This document shows, in pieces, positions 8,051-63,724 of a stretch of 64,000 nucleotides of DNA. The stretch spans positions 26,040 through 90,039 of the forward strand of contig NZ_JADJNN010000012.1 in the NCBI RefSeq assembly GCF_016714285.1. Reading direction: 5' to 3'. This DNA is from Nannocystis sp. (lineage in GTDB: Bacteria > Myxococcota_A > Polyangia > Nannocystales > Nannocystaceae). Numbering within the stretch: the first letter of the stretch is position 1; the number at the start of each line of letters is the position of its first letter. Under the pieces are notes generated by a model, which saw only the letters and a program-made list of their open reading frames with translations, was not told the DNA's origin and did no database searches. The position numbers were made by a program, and so were the translations under genes.

Positions 8051-10171
8051 ATGACAACGAGAATCTATCTGCTCCTCACGGGTGCGTGTGTGCTCGCCAC
8101 GGCGTGCAGCGACGACGGTCGCGCCGAATCCAACAGCAACACCGATGGCGGCAGCGGCAGCGTCAGCGCCAGCGGCGCGACCGATGCCGACACCGAACCG
8201 GTGCCGACCACCAGTCCGACGACCGACCCGAGCGGCGGCACGCCGGGCACCGCGAGCCAGACCAGCGAGGCGACCGAGGCCACCACCGTCGACCCGAGCG
8301 CGGGCACGGTGATGACCAGCGCCGACACGACCACCGGCGACGACCCGATCGTCGAGGTCGTGATCGATCCGCTCGACGCGATCGTCACCGTGATCGACGG
8401 CCAGATCCCCGCGCCGCTGCAGTACACCGCCAAGGGCATCACCCAGAACAACGTCGAGATCCCGCTCGACGGCACCTGGACCTACGACCGCCTCGACCTC
8501 GCCAGCCTCGGCGGCCAGTCCGGCTCCTTCACCGCGACGGGCTTCGCTGGCGGCAAGGGCACCGTCAGCTTCGACCCCGCCGGCGACCTCCTCCCGGTCC
8601 AGACCTCCGCCACCGTCAAGCTGCAGTACACCAGCGAGCCCGACCCCGTCGACCCCGGCATCAAGGACGGCTTCGGCATGGCCGTCGAGCCCGACCCGGC
8701 GATGGTCCTGCTCTACCCCTACGACAAGACCGTGTTCCCTCGCGGCCTCACCGGCCCGACCGTGCAGTGGAACGGCGGCGCCGCCGACGACCTCTACTAC
8801 ATCCACGTCTACAGCGACTTCTTCGAGTTCAAGGGCTACACCAAGGTCCCGCCGCCCTCGCGCTACAACTTCCCGAAGCTGCCCGCGGACGTGTGGCTCA
8901 AGCTCACCGCCTCGACCGAGGGCCCGGTGACCTTCGACATCCAGCGCTTCGACGGCAACAAGGCCTACCTCGCCAAGACCCAGACCTGGACGATCGCCCC
9001 CGCCAACCTCACCGGCGCCGTCTACTACTGGGAGGTCAACAACGGCAACGTCGTCCGCCTCAAGATCGGCGACCCCGCCCCGCAGCAGTTCATCAACAAG
9101 CCGCCGGGCGTCGCCTGCGTCGCCTGTCACAGCGTCTCGAAGGACGGCTCGCGCATCGCCGCCGCCTTCCACGGCGGCTACAGCCCGTGGAACGTGATCG
9201 AGGCCGCGACCGGCAACGTGCTCTACTTCCCGAACATCGCCTCCGGTTTCCAGGCCATCTCGCCCAACGGCTCGCACGTGCTGTGGGGCCAGTCCGACGA
9301 GACCGGCTCGCTCAAGCTGACGACCTTCGACAACGCCGCCGTGCTCACCACCCTGACCACCCCGGGTGGCAAGCCGGTCCACCCGGCCTGGGCCGGCGAT
9401 CCCAGCCGCGTCGCCTTCGCGCGCAAGACCGACGGCAACTGGCTCGACTTCAACAACAGCGAGCTGTGGACCGCCAACGTCGATCTCATGACCAACAGCT
9501 TCTCGAACGTGAAGCAGATCGTCGACAAGGCCCCGCCGCTCGGCACCACCACCTTCCCGACCTTCGCCCCCGACTCCGAGTGGATCGCGTTCAGCCGCCT
9601 CAACCAGGCCCGCACCCGCGGCGCCGTCACCGAGGTCTGGCTCACCAACTTCGACGGCAGCGCCCAGATGCGCCTCGACAAGGCCAACGGCCTCGGCATC
9701 ATCGAGCCCGGCCAGGACCAGACCACCTACGAGCCCACCTTCCTCCCGGTCTCCGTCGGCGGCTACTTCTGGCTCATCATCGGCAGCGAGCGCAAGTACG
9801 GCAACACCCTCACCGACACCAACCCCGGCAGCCGTCGCAAGCAGCTGTGGGTCTCGGCGATCGACGCCAACATCCAGCCCGGCCAGGACCCGAGCCACCC
9901 GCCGTTCTGGCTGCCCGGTCAGGAGCTCAACAACTCCAACATGCGCGGCGAGTGGGCGCTCGCCCCGTGCAAGCAGATCGGCGAGGGCTGCAACGCCGGC
10001 TTCGACTGCTGCGGCGGCTTCTGCTACCCGCCCGCCGAGGGCGAGGAGCCGACCTGCAACGACATGCCCGACAGCTGCTCGCACATGGGCGACGCCTGTG
10101 AGGTCGACGCGGCCTGCTGCGAGGGCGAGGGCAGCTGCATCGGCGGCTTCTGCTCGATCATGCCCGGCTGA
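8051..10171 (+). CDS. secreted lipoprotein: TolB-like beta-propeller region, single CxxCH motif, C-terminal Cys-knot tail
   Basis: GAGG RBS then ATG at 8051. Signal peptide LLLTGACVLATAC. CVACH (CxxCH) motif. TolB/WD40-like FAPDSEWIAFSR segment. C-terminal CNAGFDCCGGFCYPP...CEGEGSCIGGFCS. Confidence 0.75.
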   Translation: MTTRIYLLLTGACVLATACSDDGRAESNSNTDGGSGSVSASGATDADTEPVPTTSPTTDPSGGTPGTASQTSEATEATTVDPSAGTVMTSADTTTGDDPIVEVVIDPLDAIVTVIDGQIPAPLQYTAKGITQNNVEIPLDGTWTYDRLDLASLGGQSGSFTATGFAGGKGTVSFDPAGDLLPVQTSATVKLQYTSEPDPVDPGIKDGFGMAVEPDPAMVLLYPYDKTVFPRGLTGPTVQWNGGAADDLYYIHVYSDFFEFKGYTKVPPPSRYNFPKLPADVWLKLTASTEGPVTFDIQRFDGNKAYLAKTQTWTIAPANLTGAVYYWEVNNGNVVRLKIGDPAPQQFINKPPGVACVACHSVSKDGSRIAAAFHGGYSPWNVIEAATGNVLYFPNIASGFQAISPNGSHVLWGQSDETGSLKLTTFDNAAVLTTLTTPGGKPVHPAWAGDPSRVAFARKTDGNWLDFNNSELWTANVDLMTNSFSNVKQIVDKAPPLGTTTFPTFAPDSEWIAFSRLNQARTRGAVTEVWLTNFDGSAQMRLDKANGLGIIEPGQDQTTYEPTFLPVSVGGYFWLIIGSERKYGNTLTDTNPGSRRKQLWVSAIDANIQPGQDPSHPPFWLPGQELNNSNMRGEWALAPCKQIGEGCNAGFDCCGGFCYPPAEGEEPTCNDMPDSCSHMGDACEVDAACCEGEGSCIGGFCSIMPG

Positions 10172-12185: not shown

Positions 12186-14021
12186 ATGGGTCGCGTGGAC
12201 CCCTCGCCCGTCCTTGCCGCTACAAAGTCGCCAGGTCGCCAGGACCCCTCCACCCGGGCGACGTTTCGTGCGATAGCTGCAGGCGTGCGGGTCCCCCACG
12301 GTCCACCTTCCACGCTCGGCCCCGTCGCCGTTTGCTTGGCCCTCGTCGCCGCGTGCTACTCGGGCAGCCCGGCGGGCGACAGCGGCGACGAGCTCACCGC
12401 CGCGTCCGCGTCCAGCTCGGGCGACCCGCCGACCACCTCGGTCGGCGAATCCTCCGGAGGCTCCGCGGGCGACGACACCGGCGATCCCGTCAAGCCCTTC
12501 ATGCCCGGGCCCCCGGTGCTCCCGCGCCTGACGCAGCGGCAGTACCTCAACAGCATCGAGGCGCTGCTCGGCCCCGGCCTGCCGGTCCCGCTGCTCGAGC
12601 CCGACACCAACCCCTACCTGTTCTTCAACATCGGCGCCGCCAGCACGACCCTCTCCGAGCCCGGCGTGCAGCAGTACGAGGAGGCCGCCGACCTGTTCAC
12701 CGGCATCGTGTTCGCCGACGCGCCGCGGCGCGAGGCCCTGGTCGGCTGCCTGCCGGCCGCGCCGGGCGACGCCTGCGTGGCTGACTTCATCGCCCGCTTC
12801 GGTCGCCGCGCCTATCGTCGCCCGCTGTCCGTCGACGAGCAGGCGCGCTGGCTCGGCATGGCCAGCGAGCTGTCCGACGGCGACGCCTGGCAGGGCCTGC
12901 GCCACGCGGTCGCCGGCATGCTGCAGTCGCCGCACTTCCTCTACCGCGTCGAGCTCGGCGAGCCCGACCCGATCGATCCGACCCGCTTGCGCTACACCAG
13001 CCACGAGATGGCGAGTCGCCTGTCGTTCCTGCTGTGGAACAGCACCCCGGACGACGCGCTGCTCGACGCCGCCGACGCCGGCGACCTGCTCTCCGAGGTC
13101 GGTCTGCTCGCCGAGACCGATCGCCTGCTCGCCGACCCGCGCTCGCGCACCGCGATCCGCGACTTCTTCGCCCAGTTCCTCGACCTCGGCCGCCTCGACG
13201 GCATCACCCGCGACCCGACCCGCTACCCGCAGTTCTCGCCGACGATGATCGAGTCGATGCGCACCGAGGTCCGCCTGCTCGTCGAGGACCTCGTCTATCG
13301 CCAGCAGGGCGACATCCGCAGCATGTTCAGCACCCGCAACACCTTCGTGAACAGCGAGCTGGCTGCGCTCTACGGCGTCACCGCGGAGGGTGCCACGCCG
13401 GTCACCTTCGTCCCGGTCGAGCTGCCCGCGGACGGCCCGCGCGCGGGCCTATTGACGCTCGGCGCCTTCCTGACGATGAACGCCCACGAGACCGAGAACG
13501 CGCCGACCTCGCGCGGCAAGTACGTGCGCACGCGCGTGCTGTGTCAGGACGTGCCGCCGCCGCCGCCCGACGTCGACCTCAAGCTCGACCCCGAGGAGGC
13601 CGAGGGCAAGACCCTGCGCGAGCGCCTGGAGCAGCACCGCGCCGACCCGAGCTGCGCCGGCTGCCACTCCTTCGTCGACCCGCCCGGCTTCCTGTTCGAG
13701 CACTTCAACCCGATCGGCGCCTGGCAGGACCTCGACAACGGCTACCCGATCGACAGCTCCGGCGACCTCGACGGCAAGCCCCTGGCCGACGCGCGCGGCC
13801 TCGCCGACCTGCTCGCCGACGACAAGCGCGTCGGCCGTTGCATCGTCACCCAGCTGTACCGCCACGCGATCGGCCGCCGCGACGTCGCCTCCGAGTGGCC
13901 CGCCCTCGACGAGGTCGCCGACGACTTCGGCGCGGCCGGCCACCGCTTCACCGAGCTGCTGCAGATCCTCGTGATCAGCGACCTGTTTCGCACCGTCGCC
14001 GAGGAGGAGATCGACCCATGA
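12186..14021 (+). CDS. DUF1592/DUF1588-family protein with CxxCH motif (start uncertain; GTG at 12285 gives a lipoprotein signal)
   Basis: CAGCHSFVDPPGFLFEHF and the DUF1595/1592/1588 architecture common in Planctomycetes and Myxobacteria. Stop overlaps the next gene's start (ATGA). Confidence 0.75.
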   Translation: MGRVDPSPVLAATKSPGRQDPSTRATFRAIAAGVRVPHGPPSTLGPVAVCLALVAACYSGSPAGDSGDELTAASASSSGDPPTTSVGESSGGSAGDDTGDPVKPFMPGPPVLPRLTQRQYLNSIEALLGPGLPVPLLEPDTNPYLFFNIGAASTTLSEPGVQQYEEAADLFTGIVFADAPRREALVGCLPAAPGDACVADFIARFGRRAYRRPLSVDEQARWLGMASELSDGDAWQGLRHAVAGMLQSPHFLYRVELGEPDPIDPTRLRYTSHEMASRLSFLLWNSTPDDALLDAADAGDLLSEVGLLAETDRLLADPRSRTAIRDFFAQFLDLGRLDGITRDPTRYPQFSPTMIESMRTEVRLLVEDLVYRQQGDIRSMFSTRNTFVNSELAALYGVTAEGATPVTFVPVELPADGPRAGLLTLGAFLTMNAHETENAPTSRGKYVRTRVLCQDVPPPPPDVDLKLDPEEAEGKTLRERLEQHRADPSCAGCHSFVDPPGFLFEHFNPIGAWQDLDNGYPIDSSGDLDGKPLADARGLADLLADDKRVGRCIVTQLYRHAIGRRDVASEWPALDEVADDFGAAGHRFTELLQILVISDLFRTVAEEEIDP

Positions 14022-15391
14022 CCCCGCGCAAGCCCCTCGCACGACGCACCTTCCTCCGCGGCGCCCTCGCTGGCGGCGCGCTCGTCTCGCTCGGCGTGCC
14101 GCTGCTCGACGCGATGCTGCCGACCCGCCCGGCCCGCGCCGACGCGCCCAAGGTCCTGCCGATCTTCGGCATCTTCTACTGGGCCAACGGCATGCCCTGG
14201 CACGCCGGCCACGGCGAGACCCAGGGCCAGGGCGGCTACCCTGATCTCTGGACCCCCGCCGCCACCGGCCCCGCGTACGCCCCGAGCCCGCTGCTCACCC
14301 CGCTCGCCGCGCATCAGGTCAGCGTCGTCACCGGCCTCGAGCCCAAGACCGTGATCCCCGACGTGCCGGGGGGCCAGGGCGACGGCCACATGCGCGGCTG
14401 GCACGTGGCCATGACCGGCGCCCCGATGCGCTCCGAGGGCTTCGACCAGCCCTCGCACACCATGACCGTGCTGCAGCCGACCCTCGATCAGGTGGTCGCC
14501 ACCAACGAGCAGTTCTACGGCAAGACCCCGCCGCGCTTCCGCTCGCTGCAGGTCGGCGTCAGCGAGGCCCGCTTCCACGACTTCGGCCACTGGAACGCCA
14601 TCTCGTACACCGGCCCCGACGCGCCGATCGCCCCGGTCATGAGCACCGCGCAGCTCCACGGCCTGCTGTTCAACGTCCCCGGCGACCTCGTGAGCCTGGG
14701 TCGGCGCGCTCGCCTGCTCGACGCCGTGCTCGACGACGCCGAGAGCCTGCGCGTGCGCCTCGGCGCGACGGACCGCCAGCGCCTCGAGGCCCACCTCGAC
14801 TCGCTCAGCGAGATCCAGCGGCGCCTGCAGCTGACCTCGGGCACCTGCGACATGGTCCCGCCGGTGCCCGAGGAGTCGGGCGACCTCCTGGTCAAGACCG
14901 AGATCATGGGCCAGATCCTCGCGGTCGCGCTGCAGTGCGACCTGACCCGCGTGTTCTCCTTCATGCTCACCTCGCCGGCGACCACCCATGTGTTCGCCAA
15001 CCTCGGGGTCGCCAACGACATGCACAAGACCTGTCACGACGGCGCGTGGGAGCAGGTGCGGGCGATCACCGATTATCAGATGCAGGCCTTCGCCCGCCTC
15101 CTCGACAAGCTCGCGGTCAAGGACGCGATGGACATGAGCCTGCTGGACCGCGCGCTCGTGTTCGGCACCTCGGAGTACGGCGAGGGCTACCAGCACAGCG
15201 ACCGCGAGATGGCCGTCATCTTCGCCGGTAAGGCGGGTGGCAAGCTGATCCCCAACGTGCATGTGCGTGAGCCCGAGGGCAACTTCAGCAAGGCTCACGT
15301 GACCATGCTGCGGGCGATCGGCATCGACACCCCGAGCTTCGGCTTCAACGGCGGCGAGACCAGCGACCAGTTCTCGGAGCTGCTCGCGTAG
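14018..15391 (+). CDS. DUF1552-family protein with twin-arginine signal
   Basis: MTPRKPLARRTFLRGALAGGALVSLGVPLLDA (Tat motif RRTFLRG). Canonical partner of DUF1592. Confidence 0.8.
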   Translation: MTPRKPLARRTFLRGALAGGALVSLGVPLLDAMLPTRPARADAPKVLPIFGIFYWANGMPWHAGHGETQGQGGYPDLWTPAATGPAYAPSPLLTPLAAHQVSVVTGLEPKTVIPDVPGGQGDGHMRGWHVAMTGAPMRSEGFDQPSHTMTVLQPTLDQVVATNEQFYGKTPPRFRSLQVGVSEARFHDFGHWNAISYTGPDAPIAPVMSTAQLHGLLFNVPGDLVSLGRRARLLDAVLDDAESLRVRLGATDRQRLEAHLDSLSEIQRRLQLTSGTCDMVPPVPEESGDLLVKTEIMGQILAVALQCDLTRVFSFMLTSPATTHVFANLGVANDMHKTCHDGAWEQVRAITDYQMQAFARLLDKLAVKDAMDMSLLDRALVFGTSEYGEGYQHSDREMAVIFAGKAGGKLIPNVHVREPEGNFSKAHVTMLRAIGIDTPSFGFNGGETSDQFSELLA

Positions 15392-15400
15392 GCCCGAACG

Positions 15401-16318
15401 ATGACAGTCGCGCCCTCCCACGGCATCGCGGCGTTCGCCCTGATCGTGTGCGCCTGCTCCGGCGACGGCAACGGCGACGGCGACGATCCCAGCACGAGCG
15501 GATCGAGCAGCAGCTCGACCGGCGCAGTGACCACCAGCGACGGTTCCAGCAGCGGCGAGGCGAGCAGCGGCGACGCGAGCAGCAGCAGCGGTATCCCCGA
15601 GCTGCCGCCGCCGGAGTGCGGCCCGCTCAGCGTGTGCGGTCAGCTCTGCGTCGACCTCAGCGTCGACCCCGGCAATTGTGGCAAGTGCGGGGTGAGCTGC
15701 GTGATCCCCCACGCGAGCCCGGCGTGCAGCGGCAACGCCTGCGCGATCGCCAGCTGCGACCCCGGCTGGACCGACTGCGACGGCGACCCGCAGAACGGCT
15801 GCGAGCTGCTCGGCCCCGGCGAGAACTGCACGCCGGTGTGCAAGCAGGGCCAGCCCGAGGCCTGCAACCTGCTCGACGACAACTGCGACGGCCAGTGCGA
15901 CGAGGGAGCCGTGCCCGGCTGCCGCCAACCGGTCCATCGCGCCAGCAGCCCGACCCTCGGCCACTTCTACACGCTCGACCAGGCCGAGGCCGCATCCGGC
16001 GACTTCAAGCCCGAGTTCCTCAACTACTTCTACATGCACGTCGCCGCGGCGCCGGGCCTGGTGCCGCTGTACCGCTGCCTCAAGGGCGACAACCGCCGCT
16101 TCTACACCACGAGCGACACCTGCGAGGGTGCAGGCCCGGTCGAGGGCACGCTCGGCTATCTCGGCACCGAGGCCTTCTGCGGGGCAGTGCCGCTGTACCG
16201 GCTCTACGGGAAGGCCGACCATTTCTACACGACCAGCGTCGAGGAGCGCGACAACGCGGTGGCGATGTACGGCTATCTGTTCGAGTCGCAGGTCGGCTTC
16301 GTGTGGCCAGGACCGTGA
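15401..16318 (+). CDS. Cys-rich secreted lipoprotein with C-terminal (R/H)FYTTS repeats
   Basis: Signal IAAFALIVCAC. EGF-like Cys spacing. Repeated xFYTTS motifs. Confidence 0.65.
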   Translation: MTVAPSHGIAAFALIVCACSGDGNGDGDDPSTSGSSSSSTGAVTTSDGSSSGEASSGDASSSSGIPELPPPECGPLSVCGQLCVDLSVDPGNCGKCGVSCVIPHASPACSGNACAIASCDPGWTDCDGDPQNGCELLGPGENCTPVCKQGQPEACNLLDDNCDGQCDEGAVPGCRQPVHRASSPTLGHFYTLDQAEAASGDFKPEFLNYFYMHVAAAPGLVPLYRCLKGDNRRFYTTSDTCEGAGPVEGTLGYLGTEAFCGAVPLYRLYGKADHFYTTSVEERDNAVAMYGYLFESQVGFVWPGP

Positions 16319-16345
16319 GCAGGTCGCGCGGGCCGGATCGAGCGA

Positions 16346-16627
16346 TCAGCGCAGACACTCGTGGCTGATCTGCTCGCTCGAACCGGCCCGCGCGACGCAC
16401 TCGCGGGCCCCGGCCGGCAAGCGCACGCCCTCGCAGCGCGTCATCTCGGCGGCGTAGCGCTGGGCGAAGGCCTCCTGCTTGCGCCGCGTGAGCGCGGGGT
16501 CGCGATAACCCTGCTCGGCGAGCTCGAGCGCGACGATGCGATCGAGGATCTCCCGGCAATCGGCGGCCGTGGCCGGCTCGCCGCGGCACGCGGCGAACAG
16601 GAGCAGTGGGGCGAGGAGGCGGCGCAT
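16346..16627 (-). CDS. small secreted/lipoprotein (94 aa, 4 Cys), 5 bp downstream of the HNH gene
   Basis: ATG at 16627. MRRLLAPLLLFAACRGEP signal. Confidence 0.5.
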   Translation of the reverse strand: MRRLLAPLLLFAACRGEPATAADCREILDRIVALELAEQGYRDPALTRRKQEAFAQRYAAEMTRCEGVRLPAGARECVARAGSSEQISHECLR

Positions 16628-16632
16628 GGCGG

Positions 16633-17274
16633 TCAATCGAAGAGGTGATCGAGGCCCGCGCCGAGCCGGCCGCGGACCAGCGCAGTGAACGGGGCGCGGC
16701 GCGAGAAGTCGAGGCGCAGCGGCTCCTCCCACGCGGCACGGACCGGCCCGCGCGTCGCGCTGCCATGGGCGCGAAACTCGAGCACTCGTTCGAGGATCTC
16801 GTCGATCCGCTGGTTGATCGCCGCGCGGAGCTCGGCCGCCTTCACCGACTTACCGTTGTGCAGATAATGGAGCTCCCGGGCGGTGGCCACGGCGAGCGCG
16901 TCTGTGGCGTCGATGGCCGCGAACCGTGGGGCTTCGGAGTTGTCGCGAGCGTCGGCCTGGGTGGTCTGAGCGAGCCGCGCCTCGACATCGTCGCAGGTCG
17001 GATCGAGGAGGCCTTCTGGCGGAAACGCCGGCCGCCGCTCGTTGCAGTCGCGGCAGCTCGGGAACAGATTGGTCCATGCGTATGTGAGATCGGGGAATCG
17101 GGCCTTGGGCCGGCGATGGTCCACCGAATGTTCACGCACCGAGAGCCGAATCTCGCAGAGGTAGCACTTGCCCAGGAAGTCGCGCAGGAGCGTGTCAACG
17201 ACGTCTGGCGCGTTGTACTTCGTGCCCGCCGCGAGGCTCTGCGGCGCCTCGGTCGAGCGACGCGCGTTGATCAT
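16633..17274 (-). CDS. HNH endonuclease (PtuB-like)
   Basis: CYLCE...HSVDHRRPK...WTNLFPSCRDCN is an HNH motif with a CxxC zinc finger. The ATG overlaps the upstream ATPase stop codon as ATGA. Confidence 0.8.
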   Translation of the reverse strand: MINARRSTEAPQSLAAGTKYNAPDVVDTLLRDFLGKCYLCEIRLSVREHSVDHRRPKARFPDLTYAWTNLFPSCRDCNERRPAFPPEGLLDPTCDDVEARLAQTTQADARDNSEAPRFAAIDATDALAVATARELHYLHNGKSVKAAELRAAINQRIDEILERVLEFRAHGSATRGPVRAAWEEPLRLDFSRRAPFTALVRGRLGAGLDHLFD

Positions 17275-18377
17275 GACGCACCTGCGAGGGCCCGCACCGG
17301 GCTGGGGTTTTGGATCTTCCACACCTCGAGCGCCAGGGTCCTGGAGCGCTCGCTGAGCGTGTCGCTCAGGGTTGTCATTTCCTGCTCCTCCGCGGCGCTC
17401 CGCGCCCGCCCGGCCAGCTCGCGCAGGCGCTGGAGCTTCGCGGTCGAGTCGAGGTCCATGTCGGCGGTGATACCGAAGTGGTGCGTCATCAGGGTGCCGT
17501 AGCGGACCCCCTGGAGGTCGGCACTGTCGGTGGCCTCGCGCTTGCCGAGATCGTACACGACGGCGTCGGGGATGCTGGCGATCACCGCGGGCGAGTGGGT
17601 CGCGACGATGAATTGAAAGGTGGGAAAGATATCGGTGAGGAAGGGCAGGATGAGCTCCTGCAGGCGAATGTGCAGGTGGGTCTCGATCTCGTCGATGAGG
17701 ACAATGCCAGCGAGCTGCTCCCGCTTGAACTCCTCGCGGTGGGCCTGCGACTGAAGGAGCAGCTCGAAGAAGATGCTGAGCGCCGCCGAATGGCCCTGGG
17801 CGAGCTGCGCGAAGGAGACCTCGCGACCGTCGCTGTAGCGCAGGCTCACCGTGAAGTTCTTGCGATCGAAGTGCAGGGCCAGCGCCGGATCCTCGAACAA
17901 ATGCGCCAGGTGTCCCTGCAGCTCCGCGAACCAAGCCTCGATCGCCGCGACCGCGGCCTGATCGCCGTCGTCGCGCGCCAACGACTGTTCGACCTTGCGA
18001 TTGACGAGATACTGCACCGTCTGCTGAGTGGCAGTGATCCGGCCGCGGAGAATGTTCATCCAGTCGATCTTGGAGGGACCCGAAACCTCCTCGATCCGCA
18101 GCAGTCGCTGGGCCTGAAAGAACGCCACGATCTGCCCGCGGCCACCGTCATGCGGCTGCTCGTCGAGGCCGACATGACACGGCGCACTCGGCTGCGCCGG
18201 CATGGTGAGCTTGGGGAGGGCAGCATGAATCAGCTCGAGCGCGCTGCTCTTGCCCGAGCCGTTCGGGCCCGTCAGGATCAGGTGGCGAAACTTCGTCCCG
18301 TCGCGTGGCGATAGATCGACATCCAGCCGCTCGATGCCGCGGAATTTGGCGATCGTGATCCTGCGAATGTAGCTCAT
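17271..18377 (-). CDS. ABC/AAA-type P-loop ATPase (AAA_15/AAA_21-like, PtuA/OLD-family-like)
   Basis: Typical N-terminus MSYIRRITIAKFRGIERLDVDL and Walker A GPNGSGKSS. Walker B IVLIDEIETHLH. C-terminal ...IVATHSPAV. Confidence 0.85.
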   Translation of the reverse strand: MSYIRRITIAKFRGIERLDVDLSPRDGTKFRHLILTGPNGSGKSSALELIHAALPKLTMPAQPSAPCHVGLDEQPHDGGRGQIVAFFQAQRLLRIEEVSGPSKIDWMNILRGRITATQQTVQYLVNRKVEQSLARDDGDQAAVAAIEAWFAELQGHLAHLFEDPALALHFDRKNFTVSLRYSDGREVSFAQLAQGHSAALSIFFELLLQSQAHREEFKREQLAGIVLIDEIETHLHIRLQELILPFLTDIFPTFQFIVATHSPAVIASIPDAVVYDLGKREATDSADLQGVRYGTLMTHHFGITADMDLDSTAKLQRLRELAGRARSAAEEQEMTTLSDTLSERSRTLALEVWKIQNPSPVRALAGAS

Positions 18378-18422
18378 CGCGTGGCCAGGATAGCGCTTCT
18401 CGGTGACGGGGTGAACGGCGCC

Positions 18423-19301
18423 TCAGCGGTAGAAGTGCAGCCGGATCGGCGGTGAGACGGCGCGGATCGGGCGGCCGTCGGGGTCCTTCGCCGGGGTGAA
18501 GCGCGTGCGGCGAGCGCAGCGGATCGCGGCGGCGGCGAAGCCGTCGCCCGGGTCCTGCACGACCGTGCTGGACTCGACGCTGCCGTCGGCGCGCACGGTG
18601 ACGCGGATCGTCGCGGTCTGCTCGTCGATCGGGAGCTCGCTCGCCTCGTCGGGCCAGGGACAGTTCCACTCGTCGGTCGGCAGCGACACCGGGGCGGCTC
18701 GGCTCGGCTTGTTCGGCGTCGGTGGCGGTGTCGGTGACTCGGCGGGCGGCGGGGCGCCGACCTGCTTCGTGGGCGTCGTGCCGGTGCCGCCGGGGCTGGT
18801 GGCTCCGCCGGCGTAGGCGCTGCCCTGGCCCTCGACGAAGACCTCGCCGGTGAGGTCGAGCGGGGCGCCAGGGGCCGACACGATCTTGCCGGCGCGGGCC
18901 GGGGCGGCGCCGACTTTGAGCCGCACGCGCGGCGCGGGCTCGCTGGGCGGCGGCGTCGCGGAGGGCGTGGTGTCGGGCGCCAGGGCCGGTGGAGCGGCGA
19001 CGGGTGATGGCTCCGGGGGCTTCGGCGGGGCGAGCTCGACGATCTCGACGCGCGTGAGCTCGTCGTGGATCCGCGAGGCCAGGTCGGCGCTCCAGGCCTC
19101 GAGGCTCGGCTGCATGCCGACGATCCACACGCCGAGGGCCAGGTGCGCGAGCCCGGCGATCAGCGCGGCCGGCAGGCGTCGACGCGGCGCGGCGCGGCCG
19201 GGGCCGAACACCAGGTCGACGATGCGCGGGCTGTCCGCGGGGACAGGTGCACCTGGCGCGGAGGACAGGTCCGCGGGGACAGGTGCCTCGCGCTCGCTCA
19301 C
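18423..19301 (-). CDS. tonB: energy transducer TonB
   Basis: N-terminal TM anchor, Pro-rich spacer and C-terminal TonB domain. Last gene of the exbB-exbD-tonB operon. Confidence 0.85.
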   Translation of the reverse strand: MSEREAPVPADLSSAPGAPVPADSPRIVDLVFGPGRAAPRRRLPAALIAGLAHLALGVWIVGMQPSLEAWSADLASRIHDELTRVEIVELAPPKPPEPSPVAAPPALAPDTTPSATPPPSEPAPRVRLKVGAAPARAGKIVSAPGAPLDLTGEVFVEGQGSAYAGGATSPGGTGTTPTKQVGAPPPAESPTPPPTPNKPSRAAPVSLPTDEWNCPWPDEASELPIDEQTATIRVTVRADGSVESSTVVQDPGDGFAAAAIRCARRTRFTPAKDPDGRPIRAVSPPIRLHFYR

Positions 19302-19756
19302 GGGGAGCCTCCGGCAGGCGGCGACGAGATCGCCGGGCCCAGGCGCGGGGTCGTCGGCTCCTCGGCGCCGAAGGCGACGCGGGTGAGGCCGGCCTGCTTG
19401 AGCGCGTCGAGGGTCTGGAGGACGCGGCGGTGGGGCACGCCGCCGTCGGCGTGGATGACGGCGCGCAGCTCGGGGTCGCGGGCGCGGGCCTCGGCGGCGA
19501 GGCGGGTGAGCTCGGCGGGGGTGGGCGCGGGCTCGCCGTCGACGAGGGTGACGCCGCGCTCGGGCACCACCACGGAGAACACGACCTGGACCTGCTCGAC
19601 CTGGCTGGCCTCGGGGAGGTCCATCGGCACCGCGGGGGTGACGATGATCTTGGCGGTGACGATGAAGATGATCAGCAGCACCAGCATGATGTCGACCATC
19701 GGCGTGACGTTGATGCCGACGATCAGGCCGTCGCCCTGGGGCTGCTGGCTAGCCAC
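19298..19756 (-). CDS. exbD: biopolymer transport protein ExbD/TolR
   Basis: VTPMVDIMLVLLIIFIV ExbD signature. 4 nt overlap with tonB. Confidence 0.85.
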   Translation of the reverse strand: MASQQPQGDGLIVGINVTPMVDIMLVLLIIFIVTAKIIVTPAVPMDLPEASQVEQVQVVFSVVVPERGVTLVDGEPAPTPAELTRLAAEARARDPELRAVIHADGGVPHRRVLQTLDALKQAGLTRVAFGAEEPTTPRLGPAISSPPAGGSP

Positions 19757-20444
19757 GCGGCCCTCCCGGGGCGTTCTTCGTGGCTGTCTCCGAGGACAGG
19801 TAGGCGAGGACCAGGCTGGACAGCACCTCGGAGCTGGCGCACAGGCCGGCGATGCGGCGCTGGAAGTAGTTGTAGGCGGCGACCGCGGGGAGGGCGACCA
19901 GCAGGCCGACGGCGGTGGCGACCAGGGCCTCGGCGATGCTCGACATGACCGCCTGCGAGGCGACCTGCGAGGCCGCGCCGGTGCCAGCGCCGTGGCCCGG
20001 GCTGGCGTGGCCGAGCTCCTCGAACGCGGCGACCACGCCGATCACGGTGCCGAGCAGGCCGACGAAGGGGGCGTTGTTGCCGACGGTGCCGAGGAAGGCG
20101 AGGCCGCGCTCGAGGCGGCCGCGCTCGAGCGCGAGGGCGCTGTGCATCGCGTGCTCGACCGCCGCGGGGCCGCGCGGGGCGAGGCGCAGGCCGGCGGCGG
20201 CGACGTCGGCGGCGAGGCTGTCGGCGGCGCGCAGCTCGGTGATCGCGGTGGCGTGGTCGCCGCGGGCGAGGTGGGCGTCGAGGCGGATCGCCAGGGCCTG
20301 GAGGTCGCCGCCGCGGCGGCGCAGGACCAGCGCGCGCTCGATCGTCAGGCCGACGCTGACCAGCGAGAGCAGGCCGAGCAGGCCGAGGACCCAGCCGGCG
20401 CCGAGGCGGAGGAGCAGCTGTTGCAGGGCGTCGACGACGTGCAT
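19749..20444 (-). CDS. exbB: MotA/TolQ/ExbB proton channel
   Basis: Three TM helices and the conserved GLLGTVIG motif. Confidence 0.85.
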   Translation of the reverse strand: MHVVDALQQLLLRLGAGWVLGLLGLLSLVSVGLTIERALVLRRRGGDLQALAIRLDAHLARGDHATAITELRAADSLAADVAAAGLRLAPRGPAAVEHAMHSALALERGRLERGLAFLGTVGNNAPFVGLLGTVIGVVAAFEELGHASPGHGAGTGAASQVASQAVMSSIAEALVATAVGLLVALPAVAAYNYFQRRIAGLCASSEVLSSLVLAYLSSETATKNAPGGPRG

Positions 20445-21438: not shown

Positions 21439-22215
21439 TCAGTCGTGGGTCCAGCGGAAGCTGGGCGGCTGGGTGGTCATGGCGAAGGCGATCGCGGCGT
21501 GGGCGGGGTCGCCAGGGTTGATGCTATGCACGAGGCCGGACGCGGCGAGGGCGTCGAAGTCGACGCCAGTCAGCCATGCGCGGGGGTCGAGGCGCAGCTC
21601 GAGCCGGCTGCCCTCGTCCTGGAATTCGCTGTGGGCCCGCACACCGACCAGGGCCGGGCTGCCGCGCAGCGGCGGGACGACGTCGACGAGCGCGTCGAAG
21701 CTCAGCGACGCTCCGTCGCGCACGGCGGTGCCGGTGAGCCGGGCGGAGTGGCCGAGGGTGGCGAGGGCCTCGGGTCGCGACTGGGTGGTGAACCAGGAGA
21801 TGCCGTAGTCGAGCATGGCCGAGCGCGGCTCGCCGGGGCGGGCGTGGAGCTCACCGATCTCCGCGACCGGGGCCAGCGCGTCGACGACGGCGACCTCGGT
21901 GAATTCGCCGAGGGCCACGTCGCACAGGTCGGGCGAGGCGGCCGCGGTGGCGCACAGGTAGATCGGGCCGATAGCGACCTCGGCGCGGGTCAGCGTGACC
22001 TGCCAGTCGCCGACCGGGAAGGGCCCGGCGCCGGCGCCCACGGCCGCGAGCGGGTAGCTGAAGGGCTCGCCGCCGCTGCTGCCGCAGGCGAGCAGCAGCA
22101 CGGCCGCGAGCAGGCATCTGCGCTTGCTGTCTCTCGGGCCAGGCTGCGATCGTTCGCGCAATTTGAACCTGCCGCGATCGCTGTCTCTCAGGCCAGGTTG
22201 GGATCGTTCGCGCAT
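21439..22215 (-). CDS. lipoprotein (operon partner of the TonB-dependent receptor)
   Basis: RRCLLAAVLLLACGSSG lipobox. ATG at 22215 lies inside a duplicated 33 bp block. Lies 11 bp downstream of the receptor stop. Confidence 0.55.
   Translation of the reverse strand: MRERSQPGLRDSDRGRFKLRERSQPGPRDSKRRCLLAAVLLLACGSSGGEPFSYPLAAVGAGAGPFPVGDWQVTLTRAEVAIGPIYLCATAAASPDLCDVALGEFTEVAVVDALAPVAEIGELHARPGEPRSAMLDYGISWFTTQSRPEALATLGHSARLTGTAVRDGASLSFDALVDVVPPLRGSPALVGVRAHSEFQDEGSRLELRLDPRAWLTGVDFDALAASGLVHSINPGDPAHAAIAFAMTTQPPSFRWTHD
22128..22214. repeat. 33 bp direct repeat x2 (tgtctctcRggccaggYtgSgatcgttcgcgca, period 54) spanning the lipoprotein start
   Basis: Seen directly. It encodes the duplicated peptide RERSQPGLRDSDRG / RERSQPGPRDSKRR. 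Confidence 0.75.
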
Positions 22216-22226
22216 ATCGGACCTGC

Positions 22227-24968
22227 TCAAAAGGACAGGGTGAGGGTACCGAGGACGCTGAGCGGCGGACCGGCGGCGAAGTGGCGCGCGGGCAGGCGCG
22301 AGGGCACGGGGGTGGTGCCCCAGTCGGACACGAAGGAGTAGACGCTGGCCGCGTAGCGGCGCGCGAGCAGGTTGTAGGCCTCGACGCCGAGCTCGATCCA
22401 CGACCAACGCAGCGACGCGGAGGCGTCGAGCAGGTACAGGGGATCGGAGCTTTGGCCGTAGGGGAGCGGGCGCGCGGACAGGTAGTTGAAGCCGCCGCCG
22501 AGGCGCATGGCGAGCGGGTGAGCGCCGAGCTGCACGAGGTCCTTGCTGACGCCGAGGTCGAGGCGCACGACCACCGGCGGCACGTAGGGCAGCAGCTGGC
22601 CCGCGACGTAGGCGGGGTTCGGGTCCTCGACCGTGGCCGGCGGCGGGGCGGTGAGGATCGCGTGCACGTAGGTGACCGAGGTGGAGACTTGCAGCCACGG
22701 CCACGGGCGGGTCTGCAGGGCGGCGACCACGCCGCTGCGACGGGTCGGGCCGATCTTCTCGAGGCGGCCCTCCTCGGGGTCGAAGGCGAGGTCCTGGGCG
22801 AGGAAGGTGCCGTAGCCGGCGGCCGTGAGCTCGACGGGTCGGCGCCAGCGCGGGGCCAGGCGCACGCCGCCCTCGACGCTGTGCACCTTGGTGAAGGGGG
22901 CCCGCTCGCCCTCCTCGAGCTGACGCGCCTGCGGTGAGCGGTAGCCCTGGCCGTAGGCGACGAAGGTCTTGAGCCACGGCAGCGGCGTGACCTCGAGGGC
23001 GACGCGCGGGCCCGCGGCGACGCCGGTGGCGGTGCGGCGGTAGCCGACCAGGTGCGAGGCGACCTGGTAGGGGGCGATGAAGTTGCCGAGGTGATCGTCG
23101 ATGTCGTAGTGCAGGACGTCGGCGCGGGCGCCCCCGCGCAGCTGCACGTACTTGCCGAATCGCAGCTCGAGGTCGGCGAAGAGGCCGACGTCGGTGGCGA
23201 GGATCTCGGCGTCGACGCGGTGGTCCCAGGTCTCGTTGCTGGGCGCCTGCAGCAGGTTCTGGGCCTGGCGGACGCGGTGGATGCGGGCGCTGCTGCCGAG
23301 CTCGAGGGTGGCCGCGAACCACCGCGCGGGCCGCCACCAGCCTGTCCGATGGGACAGGCGAAAGCCGCCGCCGAGGTCGCGGTTCTGCTGCTCGATCAGG
23401 TCGCCGCGGCCGACCCAGGCGGGCATGACCATGCTGCGCTGCAGGTAGCCGGTGAAGTTCTCGCGGCTGTGGAAATCGACCAGCGCCGCGTGGGCGGCGA
23501 ACAGGGTGCGGCCGCCGGTCTCGCTGCGGTGCGTGAGCTCGAGCCCGAGTTGGCCGCGCGCGGCCGAGGCCGACTGGGCGCCGGCGCCGGGGTCGGGGTA
23601 GCGGTCGTAGAAGCCGACGCGGCCGGCCTCGACGTCGTCGTTGCGCAGCACGCCGGCCATGCCGGCGCGGGCGGCGTGGGCGGCGACCATCAGCTTGCCC
23701 GCCAGGCCGCCGGGGCCGGTGAAGGCGAACTGGCCGAGGCCGGTGCCGGACAGGGCGCCGCGGTTCATGCCGAAGCCGCTGCTGCGGCGGATCGCGGCGG
23801 CGGCGAAGGTCTCCTCGGACTGGCCGCGCGGGGCCCACATGGCGAGCTGGCGAAAGGTCCCGAAGGAGCCGCCGGTCGAGCGCAGGAGGAAGCCGCGCTG
23901 GGCCACGCCGAGGTCGAAGTCGATGCTCCCGGCGACCGCGAAGTCGCCCTGGTGCGGGTCGTACACGCCCTCGGTGACGCGGATCGATCGCACCACTTCG
24001 GGCAGGATGAAGTTGAGGTCGGCGTAGCCCTGGCCGTGCAGGTGCGAGATCTGGTTGATCGGTGCGCCGCCGACGGTGAACTCGATGTCCTGGCCGTGGG
24101 CCGCGTTGAAGCCGCGGAGGTAGATCTCGTGCGCGACCGCGTCGCCCTCGGGCCGCGAGACGTACACGCCGGGCGCCCGCGTGAGCATGTCGCCGCTGCT
24201 CTGCTTCGGCGCGGCGTTCAGGACCTCGGGGCCGAGCACGAAGTCGCTGGCGGCCCGCGGCGGCGGCGGGCGCCGGCCGTGGGTGGAGACCTCGATCACG
24301 CCCTCGTCGCCCGGGGACGGGGCCGAGCCGGCTGAAGGGACAGGTTGCGTGGAGCTGTCTGAAGGGACAGGTGCGACGGGGGCCGGCGCGCTGGCCGTGG
24401 GGACAGGTGCGGATGTGCTGGCTGAAGGGACAGGTTGCGTGGGGCTGTCTGAAGGGGCAGGTGCGACGGGGGCCGGCGAGCTGGCCGCGGGGACAGGTGC
24501 GGATGGGCTGGCTGAAGGGACAGGTCGGGTGGGAGCTGGCGAGCTGGCCGCGGGGACAGGTGACGCGGGGATGTCTGAAGGGACAGGTGCGGGAGGAGCC
24601 GGCTCGGCGAGCGGCGGCGGGAACACGAAGGGGACGCGGATCCGGGCCGCGACGGGGGCGCCGCCCTGGGTCGCGGGGGTGAAGCGCCACTGGCGGACCG
24701 CGGCGATCGCCGCGGCGTCGAAGGCCGGGCCGGCGCTGCTGGCCACCGTCACCTCGCCGACGCCGCCGTCGACGCCGACGGTGACCAGCAGCTCGACGCG
24801 CTGCGGGCTGCTGCTGGCCGCGGCGAGCGGGTAGGCGGCCTCCACTTGCTGCACCGGGCGCGGCGCCTGCACGGCCGGGGCCGCGGCGGCGCTGCGGGCC
24901 GTGAGGGCGGCGAGGAGCAGGGCGGCGCCGCAGCGGACGCGGCGCGCCGGTGTCAGGGCCGGGGGCAT
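22227..24968 (-). CDS. TonB-dependent outer-membrane receptor with N-terminal TonB-C-like domain and Pro-rich tandem-repeat linker
   Basis: Signal peptide, plug and barrel, and C-terminal ...TLTLSF ending in Phe. The N-terminal segment resembles the TonB C-terminal fold. DNA at 24300-24600 is tandemly repetitive and encodes (PVPSAS/PAPVAPxPSDS) units. Confidence 0.85.
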   Translation of the reverse strand: MPPALTPARRVRCGAALLLAALTARSAAAAPAVQAPRPVQQVEAAYPLAAASSSPQRVELLVTVGVDGGVGEVTVASSAGPAFDAAAIAAVRQWRFTPATQGGAPVAARIRVPFVFPPPLAEPAPPAPVPSDIPASPVPAASSPAPTRPVPSASPSAPVPAASSPAPVAPAPSDSPTQPVPSASTSAPVPTASAPAPVAPVPSDSSTQPVPSAGSAPSPGDEGVIEVSTHGRRPPPPRAASDFVLGPEVLNAAPKQSSGDMLTRAPGVYVSRPEGDAVAHEIYLRGFNAAHGQDIEFTVGGAPINQISHLHGQGYADLNFILPEVVRSIRVTEGVYDPHQGDFAVAGSIDFDLGVAQRGFLLRSTGGSFGTFRQLAMWAPRGQSEETFAAAAIRRSSGFGMNRGALSGTGLGQFAFTGPGGLAGKLMVAAHAARAGMAGVLRNDDVEAGRVGFYDRYPDPGAGAQSASAARGQLGLELTHRSETGGRTLFAAHAALVDFHSRENFTGYLQRSMVMPAWVGRGDLIEQQNRDLGGGFRLSHRTGWWRPARWFAATLELGSSARIHRVRQAQNLLQAPSNETWDHRVDAEILATDVGLFADLELRFGKYVQLRGGARADVLHYDIDDHLGNFIAPYQVASHLVGYRRTATGVAAGPRVALEVTPLPWLKTFVAYGQGYRSPQARQLEEGERAPFTKVHSVEGGVRLAPRWRRPVELTAAGYGTFLAQDLAFDPEEGRLEKIGPTRRSGVVAALQTRPWPWLQVSTSVTYVHAILTAPPPATVEDPNPAYVAGQLLPYVPPVVVRLDLGVSKDLVQLGAHPLAMRLGGGFNYLSARPLPYGQSSDPLYLLDASASLRWSWIELGVEAYNLLARRYAASVYSFVSDWGTTPVPSRLPARHFAAGPPLSVLGTLTLSF

Positions 24969-60057: not shown

Positions 60058-60977
60058 AGGCCGAGATCCTCCGCCAAAGATTGCAAACGTGGAGATGAAA
60101 GGTCCCAGCTCATCGCCTGAGCGCTGGCCGGGAAGAGCGTAATGTTGAGCATGACGCCTGGCCAAGGCAGAGGTGTGAGCGCGTAAGCACTCGTGCCATC
60201 CTTGTTCATCGTAAACGAAGTGTCTCCTGTCCAGATCCAGAGCTCGCCACCGCTCGCGCGGATGAGCTCAGTCAGGAGGTGGAGACCCCATCCCATGTGG
60301 TGGTCTCGCTGATCCGATCCACCCTCCGATTCGGCGTAGGGGTCGCCTTGCACGATCGCGTCTTGCGGGAGTGTTCTGGCGGTGTGACGACCGGCGGTGT
60401 TGCCCTTCTTCAAGCACCATCGGATGGCATCCTCGTGATTCGTGATTGATGGTTGGGCCCGTCGGACGTTGCTCAAGAATCCGCACCCAGCATCCGCGAC
60501 CGAGAGCTCGAGGCGAGCCGGGTGGTCACTGCGACTTGGGTAGAACTGTGCCGCGGAAAATCCCCTCCCATCCGCATGAGAGGCAATATTATCATGCAAC
60601 TCGCCCACAACGCGTGCCATGGCATCGATCGCAGCGCGCGGCATTCCGCCGAGTTGGGCGAAGATGAGATCATTGATCGTTTGATTGCACGCTTCGATCT
60701 CTGCGTGGTGAAATAGCGTCGTGAGTGGGCTCCAAGTCTGGCCTTGCTGTCCCCGGCGGGCCTTGCTCATGGCCGCGTGATTGGCGGCGAGGGCGTCGTC
60801 GAGCCCGCTCAGCTTCGCGTACTCTTGAGTGTCGTTCACGAAATCTACATGCAATTGTCCGCGGGCGATGCGCGTGCATGCCAAGAACGTGGCGATCGCT
60901 GGCTGGATAAATCGAACCTCGATCGGCTCCTTGCGGCTCGCGCGCGACCACATGGTGATGACGGCTCTATCTAACAT
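60054..60977 (-). CDS. GHKL/HATPase_c-type ATPase (anti-sigma-factor-kinase-like)
   Basis: N box ELHDNIASHA. G1 box DAGCGF. G2 box GWGLHLL. Lower-GC context (about 57-60%). Confidence 0.7.
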   Translation of the reverse strand: MLDRAVITMWSRASRKEPIEVRFIQPAIATFLACTRIARGQLHVDFVNDTQEYAKLSGLDDALAANHAAMSKARRGQQGQTWSPLTTLFHHAEIEACNQTINDLIFAQLGGMPRAAIDAMARVVGELHDNIASHADGRGFSAAQFYPSRSDHPARLELSVADAGCGFLSNVRRAQPSITNHEDAIRWCLKKGNTAGRHTARTLPQDAIVQGDPYAESEGGSDQRDHHMGWGLHLLTELIRASGGELWIWTGDTSFTMNKDGTSAYALTPLPWPGVMLNITLFPASAQAMSWDLSSPRLQSLAEDLGL

Positions 60978-61085
60978 CCGCGGTGTCCTTGATGGTGCGA
61001 TCCCTGTTGCACTCTACACTGGAAGTGGTGCCCAGGCACGTGACGATTGTCCGTGTATTGTCTCACGAAAACGAGGACCAGGCTC

Positions 61086-63635: not shown

Positions 63636-63641
63636 GCGGGA

Positions 63642-63724
63642 GGGACAGGGCGGAAGGGACAGGGCGGAAGGGACAGGGCGGAAGGGACAGGGCGGAAGGG
63701 ACAGGGCGGAAGGGACAGGTGAGG
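63642..63724. repeat. 14 bp tandem repeat gggacagggcggaa x5 plus a partial copy, 6 nt upstream of the thrA start codon
   Basis: Seen directly. On the coding strand it is CCUGUCCCUUCCGC, pyrimidine-rich. Confidence 0.9.

Follow-up and report, generated by a model that had tools for sequence, protein, structure and literature searches.

Septu protects bacteria against phages through two enzymes, the ATPase PtuA and the nuclease PtuB. PMC12819146 describes stand-alone PtuAB as a hexameric, inflammasome-like PtuA assembly holding PtuB, with a DNA-nicking activity that falls as ATP rises; in the activation model given in the same source the triggers are phage proteins, with a tail-fibre cue reported, plus a fall in ATP. 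The stoichiometry of such an assembly is PtuA6:PtuB2. The same two folds occur in type I-A retrons (Ec78/Eco7 and the Ec83 PtuAB), whose PtuA bears an N-terminal extension and a helical flap that bind the reverse transcriptase (RT), the non-coding RNA (ncRNA) and the multicopy single-stranded DNA (msDNA) (PMC12819146). PARIS AriA, Gabija GajA and OLD have in common with PtuA an ABC-ATPase core and the logic of an ATP-regulated nuclease. In the myxobacterial phylum, Septu ranks among the four dominant defence systems according to a survey of 3,229 genomes (bioRxiv 10.64898/2026.09.14.751636). Here we analyse a pair of genes, ptuA and ptuB, in a stretch of 64,000 nt from Nannocystis sp. (contig NZ_JADJNN010000012.1, positions 26,040 to 90,039), hereafter the window. 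We suggest that the pair is very probably a type I stand-alone Septu, carried on a cassette of ~1.8 kb that was inserted once into the TonB operon of Nannocystis and has been retained there; its function in defence is assigned by likeness to characterised Septu, and the same degree of confidence covers the explanation as a whole.

A preliminary description of this DNA had read an ATPase gene at 17271-18377 and an HNH nuclease gene at 16633-17274, overlapping as ATGA, as a PtuA/PtuB-type pair, and had proposed profile searches and structure prediction as checks. The coordinates and the overlap (ptuA TGA, ptuB ATG) agree with the map of open reading frames (ORFs) and with the sequence itself, and both checks favour Septu. 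Against PADLOC, the ATPase matched PtuA1 best (PDLC00268, E=1.3e-74, 250 bits, near full length) and PtuA models made up 22 of its top 25 matches, while ATPase models outside the Ptu families reached ~70-98 bits (AriA and mad3 ~70). The HNH protein matched PtuB1 (PDLC00331, E=2e-26, 91 bits) over profile positions 1-203 of 222. Nothing material separates the pair from the compact PtuA1/PtuB1 subfamily, which is common in Polyangia and Myxococcota and is its own family. In Pfam, AAA_21 (described as a putative AbiEii toxin) and AAA_15 both exceeded their gathering cut-offs on the ATPase, and HNH scored 26.7 bits on PtuB against a cut-off of 21.4; matches of the ATPase to RecF/SMC were confined to the N-terminus, at ~22-33 bits. 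A sequence search of the PDB returned PtuA and PtuB alone, followed by AriA, and the best names in NCBIfam were retron Ec78 PtuA, retron Ec78 PtuB and TIGR02646.

The catalytic motifs are complete in both proteins. PtuA begins with MSYIRRITIAKFRGIERLDVDL and has the Walker A motif GPNGSGKS; across 110 PtuA homologs, Walker A G37-K43 (G37, N39, G40, G42 and K43), the signature G195, Walker B D229/E230 and the H-loop H261 are invariant. Of the motif residues of PtuB (C37-x2-C40, D52-H53, N69 and C74-x2-C77-N78), five (C37, C40, H53, C74 and N78) do not vary among 87 homologs, and conservation of the other three (D52, N69 and C77) is 90% or higher. Mutating the equivalent ATPase or nuclease residues abolishes Septu defence, which is lost when either enzyme is mutated (PMC13096335), and the window proteins retain all of these residues.

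AlphaFold2 modelled each protein with a high predicted local distance difference test score (pLDDT; 89.9 for PtuA and 96.1 for PtuB), and the closest solved folds were PtuA and PtuB. When the models were compared with the PDB by Foldseek, the top 50 matches of PtuA were PtuA chains exclusively (query TM-score, TMq, 0.5-0.66; including 8eea and 8ee4), and the top nine of PtuB were full-length PtuB chains (TMq 0.56-0.67; including 8eea_G), with generic HNH domains only after them. Both models end in helices, three in PtuA (residues 309-356) and three long ones in PtuB, and together these would fit the nine-helix PtuA2:PtuB bundle of PMC12819146. With the profiles, folds and motifs in agreement, and no RT or retron RNA nearby (see below), we assign the pair to stand-alone type I Septu.

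Compared with type I Septu (8EE4/8EEA/8SUX and EcB88), the locus is alike in its co-oriented overlapping genes, in Walker A K43, the signature, Walker B D-E and the H-loop, in a PtuA without an N-terminal extension, in a PtuB that joins an HNH domain to a C-terminal helical domain, in folds that correspond over their full length, and in PtuA C-terminal helices that could clamp PtuB. It is unlike them in its low identity to the solved Septu chains (15-16%), in the length of PtuA (368 versus 465 amino acids, aa), in the complete second CxxC of PtuB, in its host, a myxobacterium of 72% GC, and in its placement in a TonB operon rather than in a defence island. The difference in length can be located. 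The Walker A lysine is K43 in the window PtuA and in EcB88 alike, and the Walker B aspartate is D229 here versus D316 in EcB88 (motif positions of EcB88 from PMC13096335), so the helical insert that separates these motifs is ~87 residues shorter here; the AlphaFold2 model keeps the C-terminal helices.

The short ATPase had been thought a possible divergent subtype. We reject this, as compact PtuAs are common and already modelled: a family with many members, 330-440 aa in length, falls under the PtuA1 models of PADLOC. The PtuA family comprised 451 clusters (at 50% identity) matching at E<=1e-30, the top 150 representatives were mostly 330-490 aa long, and the named relatives were mostly Polyangia (Sorangium, Minicystis, Polyangium and Paraliomyxa), 40-50% identical to the window protein. 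One family member (P0001) is 100% identical to it. Such a compact PtuA could help to define the minimal Septu architecture.

The pair had been described as lying beside the TonB operon. The neighbours were correctly named, but the actual position is inside the operon, between tonB and its last gene, as the following features show.

22227-24968, minus strand: TonB-dependent receptor, heading the operon (Pfam Plug/TonB_dep_Rec)
19749-20444, minus strand: exbB (Pfam MotA_ExbB)
19298-19756, minus strand: exbD (Pfam ExbD)
18423-19301, minus strand: tonB, the left edge of the insertion site (Pfam TonB_C)
18378-18422, minus strand: leader, 45 nt from the tonB stop to the ptuA ATG
17271-18377, minus strand: ptuA, 368 aa, compact ABC/OLD-type ATPase (ORF map)
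16633-17274, minus strand: ptuB, 213 aa, HNH (beta-beta-alpha-Me) nuclease with a CxxC...CxxC zinc-binding motif and a C-terminal helical domain
16346-16627, minus strand: small gene of a likely lipoprotein, 93 aa, native to the TonB operon as its last gene and outside Septu; the right edge of the insertion

Two genes of unknown product lie between the receptor and exbB on the same strand, and genes of the DUF5648, DUF1552 and DUF1592 families (Pfam) converge on the operon from the opposite side.

Empty versions of the site were located through homologs of the small gene, and a profile search of genome contigs with an ExbB alignment gave only two loci, of which one was known before. The loci fall into three groups: occupied (the window, W, and L013; L003-6; L007; L021-24), empty (L011, L012 and L015-17), and ptuAB in other contexts (L001/L002 and L018-L020). 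L013 (GCA_016717175.1) is 99.0% identical to the window over 20.3 kb. The occupied arrangement recurs in three further lineages (L003-6, L007 and L021-24), whose PtuA is 73-75% identical, and the flanks of the four occupied lineages differ by 7-23% in protein sequence. The operon order at the empty sites, receptor-x-(x)-ExbB-ExbD-TonB-small gene, is shared by the occupied loci. A search of related genomes for the site without the pair had been proposed at the outset, and the same operon lacks it in N. punicea, N. pusilla and one metagenomic lineage; at these empty sites (L011, L012, L015-17) tblastn found no ptuAB remnants. The insertion starts right after the tonB stop, ends 5 nt before the ATG of the small gene and has the same orientation as the operon. 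In a tree of concatenated receptor, ExbB, ExbD and TonB sequences (L021 was left out, its receptor gene being incomplete), W, L013, L003 and L007 group as a single clade, to which the empty-site L015 lineage is the nearest outgroup.

The spacer between tonB and ptuA measures 45, 61, 108 or 151 nt, and the longer ones, of L003 and L021, share what remains of the 3' end of a coding sequence ('...DRLREAADQAWGPAPAP*' and '...VRLHEAADQARRPS'), a pattern that indicates one insertion in an ancestor and later deletions that differed between lineages. The relic, '...AELGFLRDRAAALALIDRLREAADQAWGPAPAP*' at L003:9850-9955 and L021:5893-5955, has been deleted in the window and is probably a gene stub brought along from the donor context.

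A lower GC content had also been noticed in the pair, and composition confirms it: GC averages 71.7% over the window and falls to 66.5% in the cassette, with only one other stretch of equal size in the 64 kb as low, and GC at third codon positions (GC3) is 84-86% in ptuA and ptuB versus 92-98% in neighbouring genes. The wider ranges for GC3 are 80-86% and 90-98%. We conclude that the pair is an insertion of foreign composition, made once and kept in one subclade. It had been argued that conservation of synteny as core genes would speak against defence. Synteny does hold in four lineages, but the pair is not a core gene pair, since three lineages lack it at this site and two unrelated contexts have it, the same cassette occurring there together with its leader (L001 and L018).

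In the first of these contexts (L001:4543-5586, GCA_965192245.1), ptuAB is followed directly by the gene for a type II DNA methyltransferase (PADLOC MTase_II, 507 bits) and by one with a B3_4 domain, surroundings more typical of a defence island. One metagenome sample, ERZ27296167, yielded a tonB site without the pair (L017) as well as a related ptuAB that has a P450/AF_1499 context (L019); if the two belong to one organism, an empty-site lineage carries the cassette elsewhere. The DUF5648/DUF1552/DUF1592 block next to the operon (window 12186-16318) is restricted to ptuAB-carrying lineages, L011, L012 and L015 having BfoA_C, VWA or other genes there, so the 3' side of the operon was rearranged on the same branch as the insertion.

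The ratio of nonsynonymous to synonymous substitution rates (dN/dS) is 0.20-0.36 for ptuA and 0.17-0.26 for ptuB, which indicates purifying selection and hence that both genes are functional. Among the copies at the tonB site, dS of the two genes is 0.62-1.15, ~3x the value of each gene in the flanks (0.12-0.38). The relationships of the flanks are not mirrored in the PtuA identities, and the L001 copy, from another context, is as near to the tonB-site copies as those are to one another. Between W and L013, mismatches per kb number 5.2 in the cassette, 9.6 in the rest of the locus and 3.7 in adjacent genes; on these small counts the comparison does not support faster synonymous evolution of the cassette as the cause of its high dS. 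The high values could have resulted either from extreme codon bias depressing dS in the flanks or from exchange of alleles at the site. The same comparison revealed a separate hotspot at window 21439-22226, comprising the gene for a 220-aa lipoprotein after the receptor and the intergenic region upstream of it, where mismatches per kb reach 42-112 and adjacent genes have 0-7; recombination may have affected this tract, or the surface lipoprotein may be diversifying.

The leader travels with the genes. Its last ~45 nt before the ptuA ATG align in every occupied lineage as well as in L001 and L018, and it contains a promoter-like pair of elements, the -35-like TTCACC (18415-18410) and the -10-like TATCCT (18392-18387), separated by 17 nt and followed by 9 nt to the ATG. 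TAnnnT is invariant, 9-10 nt before the ATG, and L018 has a perfect TTGACA. The leader has no Shine-Dalgarno sequence. These features suggest that the cassette brings its own promoter and that its message is almost leaderless. The terminator-like matches of the scanner were at chance level. No terminator was predicted between tonB and ptuA, so read-through from the operon is likely too. Downstream, the ATGA overlap of adjacent, co-oriented ptuA and ptuB recurs in six of six homologous lineages.

Several observations weigh against the reading of the locus as an inserted stand-alone Septu. The NCBIfam models fell well below their cut-offs, NF041760 on PtuA with 93.8 bits versus 500 and NF041761 on PtuB with 28.5 versus 150, as did TIGR02646 on PtuB with 36.9 versus 52.15; these models rest on retron-type proteins. 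In the structure-match alignments, sequence identity to characterised PtuA and PtuB was only 14-21%. With ~87 residues fewer than the E. coli Septu PtuA, the window protein may differ in oligomeric state and trigger. The leader element matches the promoter consensus at 8 of 12 positions, under the threshold of the scanner (9 of 12). Finally, no integrase, transposase, target-site duplication or meaningful terminal repeat explains the movement of the cassette: the repeats at its edges are short and at chance level, and a 13/14-nt match (16299/18377) is not conserved in L003 and L007. Plasmid and phage collections held no close relative either, the best match being to a Persicobacter plasmid at 35% identity.

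Other explanations of the pair were weighed against these data. It could be an orphan effector module of a type I-A retron (Ec78/Eco7-like) whose RT and ncRNA have been lost or lie elsewhere, as the best E-values in PDB sequence and fold searches, and the top NCBIfam names, belong to retron PtuA and PtuB. Retron structures, however, outnumber Septu structures in the PDB, and the NCBIfam equivalog cut-offs are far from reached. There is no RVT-family gene in the 20 kb of the near-identical, annotated L013, 10 kb on either side of the pair, and no Rfam match in the whole 64-kb window. Further to that, the family profile aligns from residue 64 of the retron (Ec83) PtuA but from residue 4 of the Septu PtuA 8ee4, so the window PtuA lacks the retron-type N-terminal extension; we consider a retron origin very doubtful. 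Even less credible is membership of another ABC/OLD-ATPase defence family, be it PARIS (AriAB), Gabija, MADS or an AbiEii/AAA_21 toxin pair. The weaker AriA and mad3 matches in PADLOC, the description of AAA_21 and the presence of AriA among the PDB matches would be in line with it, but PtuA models score 250 bits versus ~70, the partner is a full-length PtuB-family HNH protein and not a TOPRIM/DUF4435 protein or a helicase (in AriA, GajA and OLD the nuclease is of TOPRIM type), and the top folds are all PtuA and PtuB. The position shared by four lineages, the purifying selection and the location in an operon with no predicted terminator ahead might instead point to a pair that has been domesticated, or does housekeeping work, for the TonB operon or in DNA repair, as core genes of the lineage. 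This is highly improbable, since the pair is missing from the same operon in three lineages and present in unrelated contexts, one of them beside a type II methyltransferase; its best matches are defence families, those to RecF/SMC being weak and N-terminal, and it is the fastest-diverging element of the locus. Fast divergence is typical of defence genes. We regard as comparably improbable a selfish, toxin-antitoxin-like addiction cassette with no net anti-phage benefit. A minimal, self-contained mobile unit of two genes, in which a nuclease is restrained by its partner and which has long been kept at one site and occurs in other contexts too, would suit that description; addiction and defence are not mutually exclusive, and characterised Septu protects against phages and loses this protection when either enzyme is mutated (PMC13096335).

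The remaining alternative concerns the number of genes. The preliminary description had proposed a 94-aa, Cys-containing secreted protein, starting 5 bp after the stop of the HNH gene, as a third component. The ORF is indeed there, with its ATG at 16627, 5 nt past the ptuB stop, and its end at 16346; it encodes 93 aa and not 94. Its product is likely a lipoprotein, as the signal peptide closes with a Cys that is conserved (LLLFAAC); four further Cys are conserved too, and the protein had no match in PADLOC, Pfam or NCBIfam. A three-gene system in which this Cys-rich exported protein acts as an accessory or sensor of Septu would agree with a position kept in four of four occupied lineages, and with the extended small ORF that the gene caller predicts in L003, which overlaps the ptuB stop. 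The same gene, however, directly follows tonB without ptuAB in N. punicea (CP114040, L011), N. pusilla (CP185339, L012) and the metagenomic L015-L017, with the tonB TGA overlapping its ATG in L015, and no such gene follows ptuAB in the other contexts (L001/L002 and L018-L020). Its identity (86-88%), GC3 (91-95%) and dS (0.17-0.36) are like those of the flanks and unlike those of the cassette, and its family is restricted to 61 clusters, whose named members are all Nannocystis, against the far wider PtuA family. A third component is thus rejected as extremely unlikely, and by its occurrence and composition the small gene is the TonB operon's own last gene, coding for the likely lipoprotein. The locus calls for caution in that a tightly abutting downstream gene need not be a component of the system.

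A 49-nt inverted repeat spans the stop of the small gene (window 16310-16409) and can form a hairpin of -87 kcal/mol (z=-8.3). It is confined to the W/L013 lineage, the other lineages lacking the 3' arm and reaching -40 to -69 kcal/mol, and we therefore rejected it as a conserved terminator of the operon. The hairpin has the look of a local duplication, in inverted orientation, of the small gene's 3' end, and it may serve as a bidirectional terminator between the convergent genes.

Returning to the pair as a type I Septu, we propose by analogy with characterised systems how it might act. PtuA and PtuB would be translated from one message via the ATGA overlap, the message arising by read-through from the operon and probably from the promoter-like element of the cassette as well. 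PtuA would then oligomerise, and the three C-terminal helices from a PtuA dimer would clamp the helical C-terminal domain of PtuB, so that the nuclease is kept in check within a complex that has ATP bound. On infection, a phage protein cue or a fall in ATP would free or activate the HNH nuclease, which might nick DNA and/or cause cleavage of tRNA-Tyr, so that the infected cell is arrested and phage production blocked. As to its history, a cassette of ~1.8 kb (a leader of ~45 nt, ptuA and ptuB) was inserted once, in an ancestor within Nannocystis, exactly between tonB and the lipoprotein gene, and purifying selection has kept it in at least four of the lineages that descend from it.

As a defence system the pair adds little, Septu being structurally well characterised, detected by standard tools and common in myxobacteria. 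Its sole mildly unusual trait is the precise, orientation-preserving insertion in the TonB operon, retained across a subclade. This makes the locus a clean natural case of a minimal defence cassette, consisting of a leader and two genes with no mobility genes, in an unbroken housekeeping operon whose occupied and empty sites can be compared. It may be, although we think it unlikely, that the placement in the TonB operon is functional, that the compact PtuA assembles or senses differently and that alleles have repeatedly been swapped at a fixed site. If so, Septu would be co-expressed with an outer-membrane uptake system of a kind that phages commonly exploit as a receptor, and immunity would rise together with the route of entry.

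Some other features of the window were recorded. The receptor encoded at 22227-24968 has an N-terminal TonB_C-like domain followed by a Pro/Ser/Ala-rich linker and then the plug, and the linker is coded by a 90-nt tandem repeat in 2.3-2.9 copies (24330-24603). A near-perfect 14-nt tandem repeat, GCGGAAGGGACAGG, is present in six copies at 63636-63719, its period not being a multiple of three, and the motif GAAGGGACAGG is common to this repeat and to those of the receptor linker (24330-24603). The strongest low-GC island of the window lies at ~58500-61000, with 59-63% GC versus 72%; its ORFs (58219-59439 and 59644-60120 on the plus strand, 59062-59568 and 60054-60977 on the minus strand) had no match in Pfam or PADLOC except a weak one to HATPase_c, and the island may be another acquired segment. 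ARAGORN predicted a tRNA-Pro(CGG) at 8177-8267, which at 91 nt is longer than a usual tRNA.

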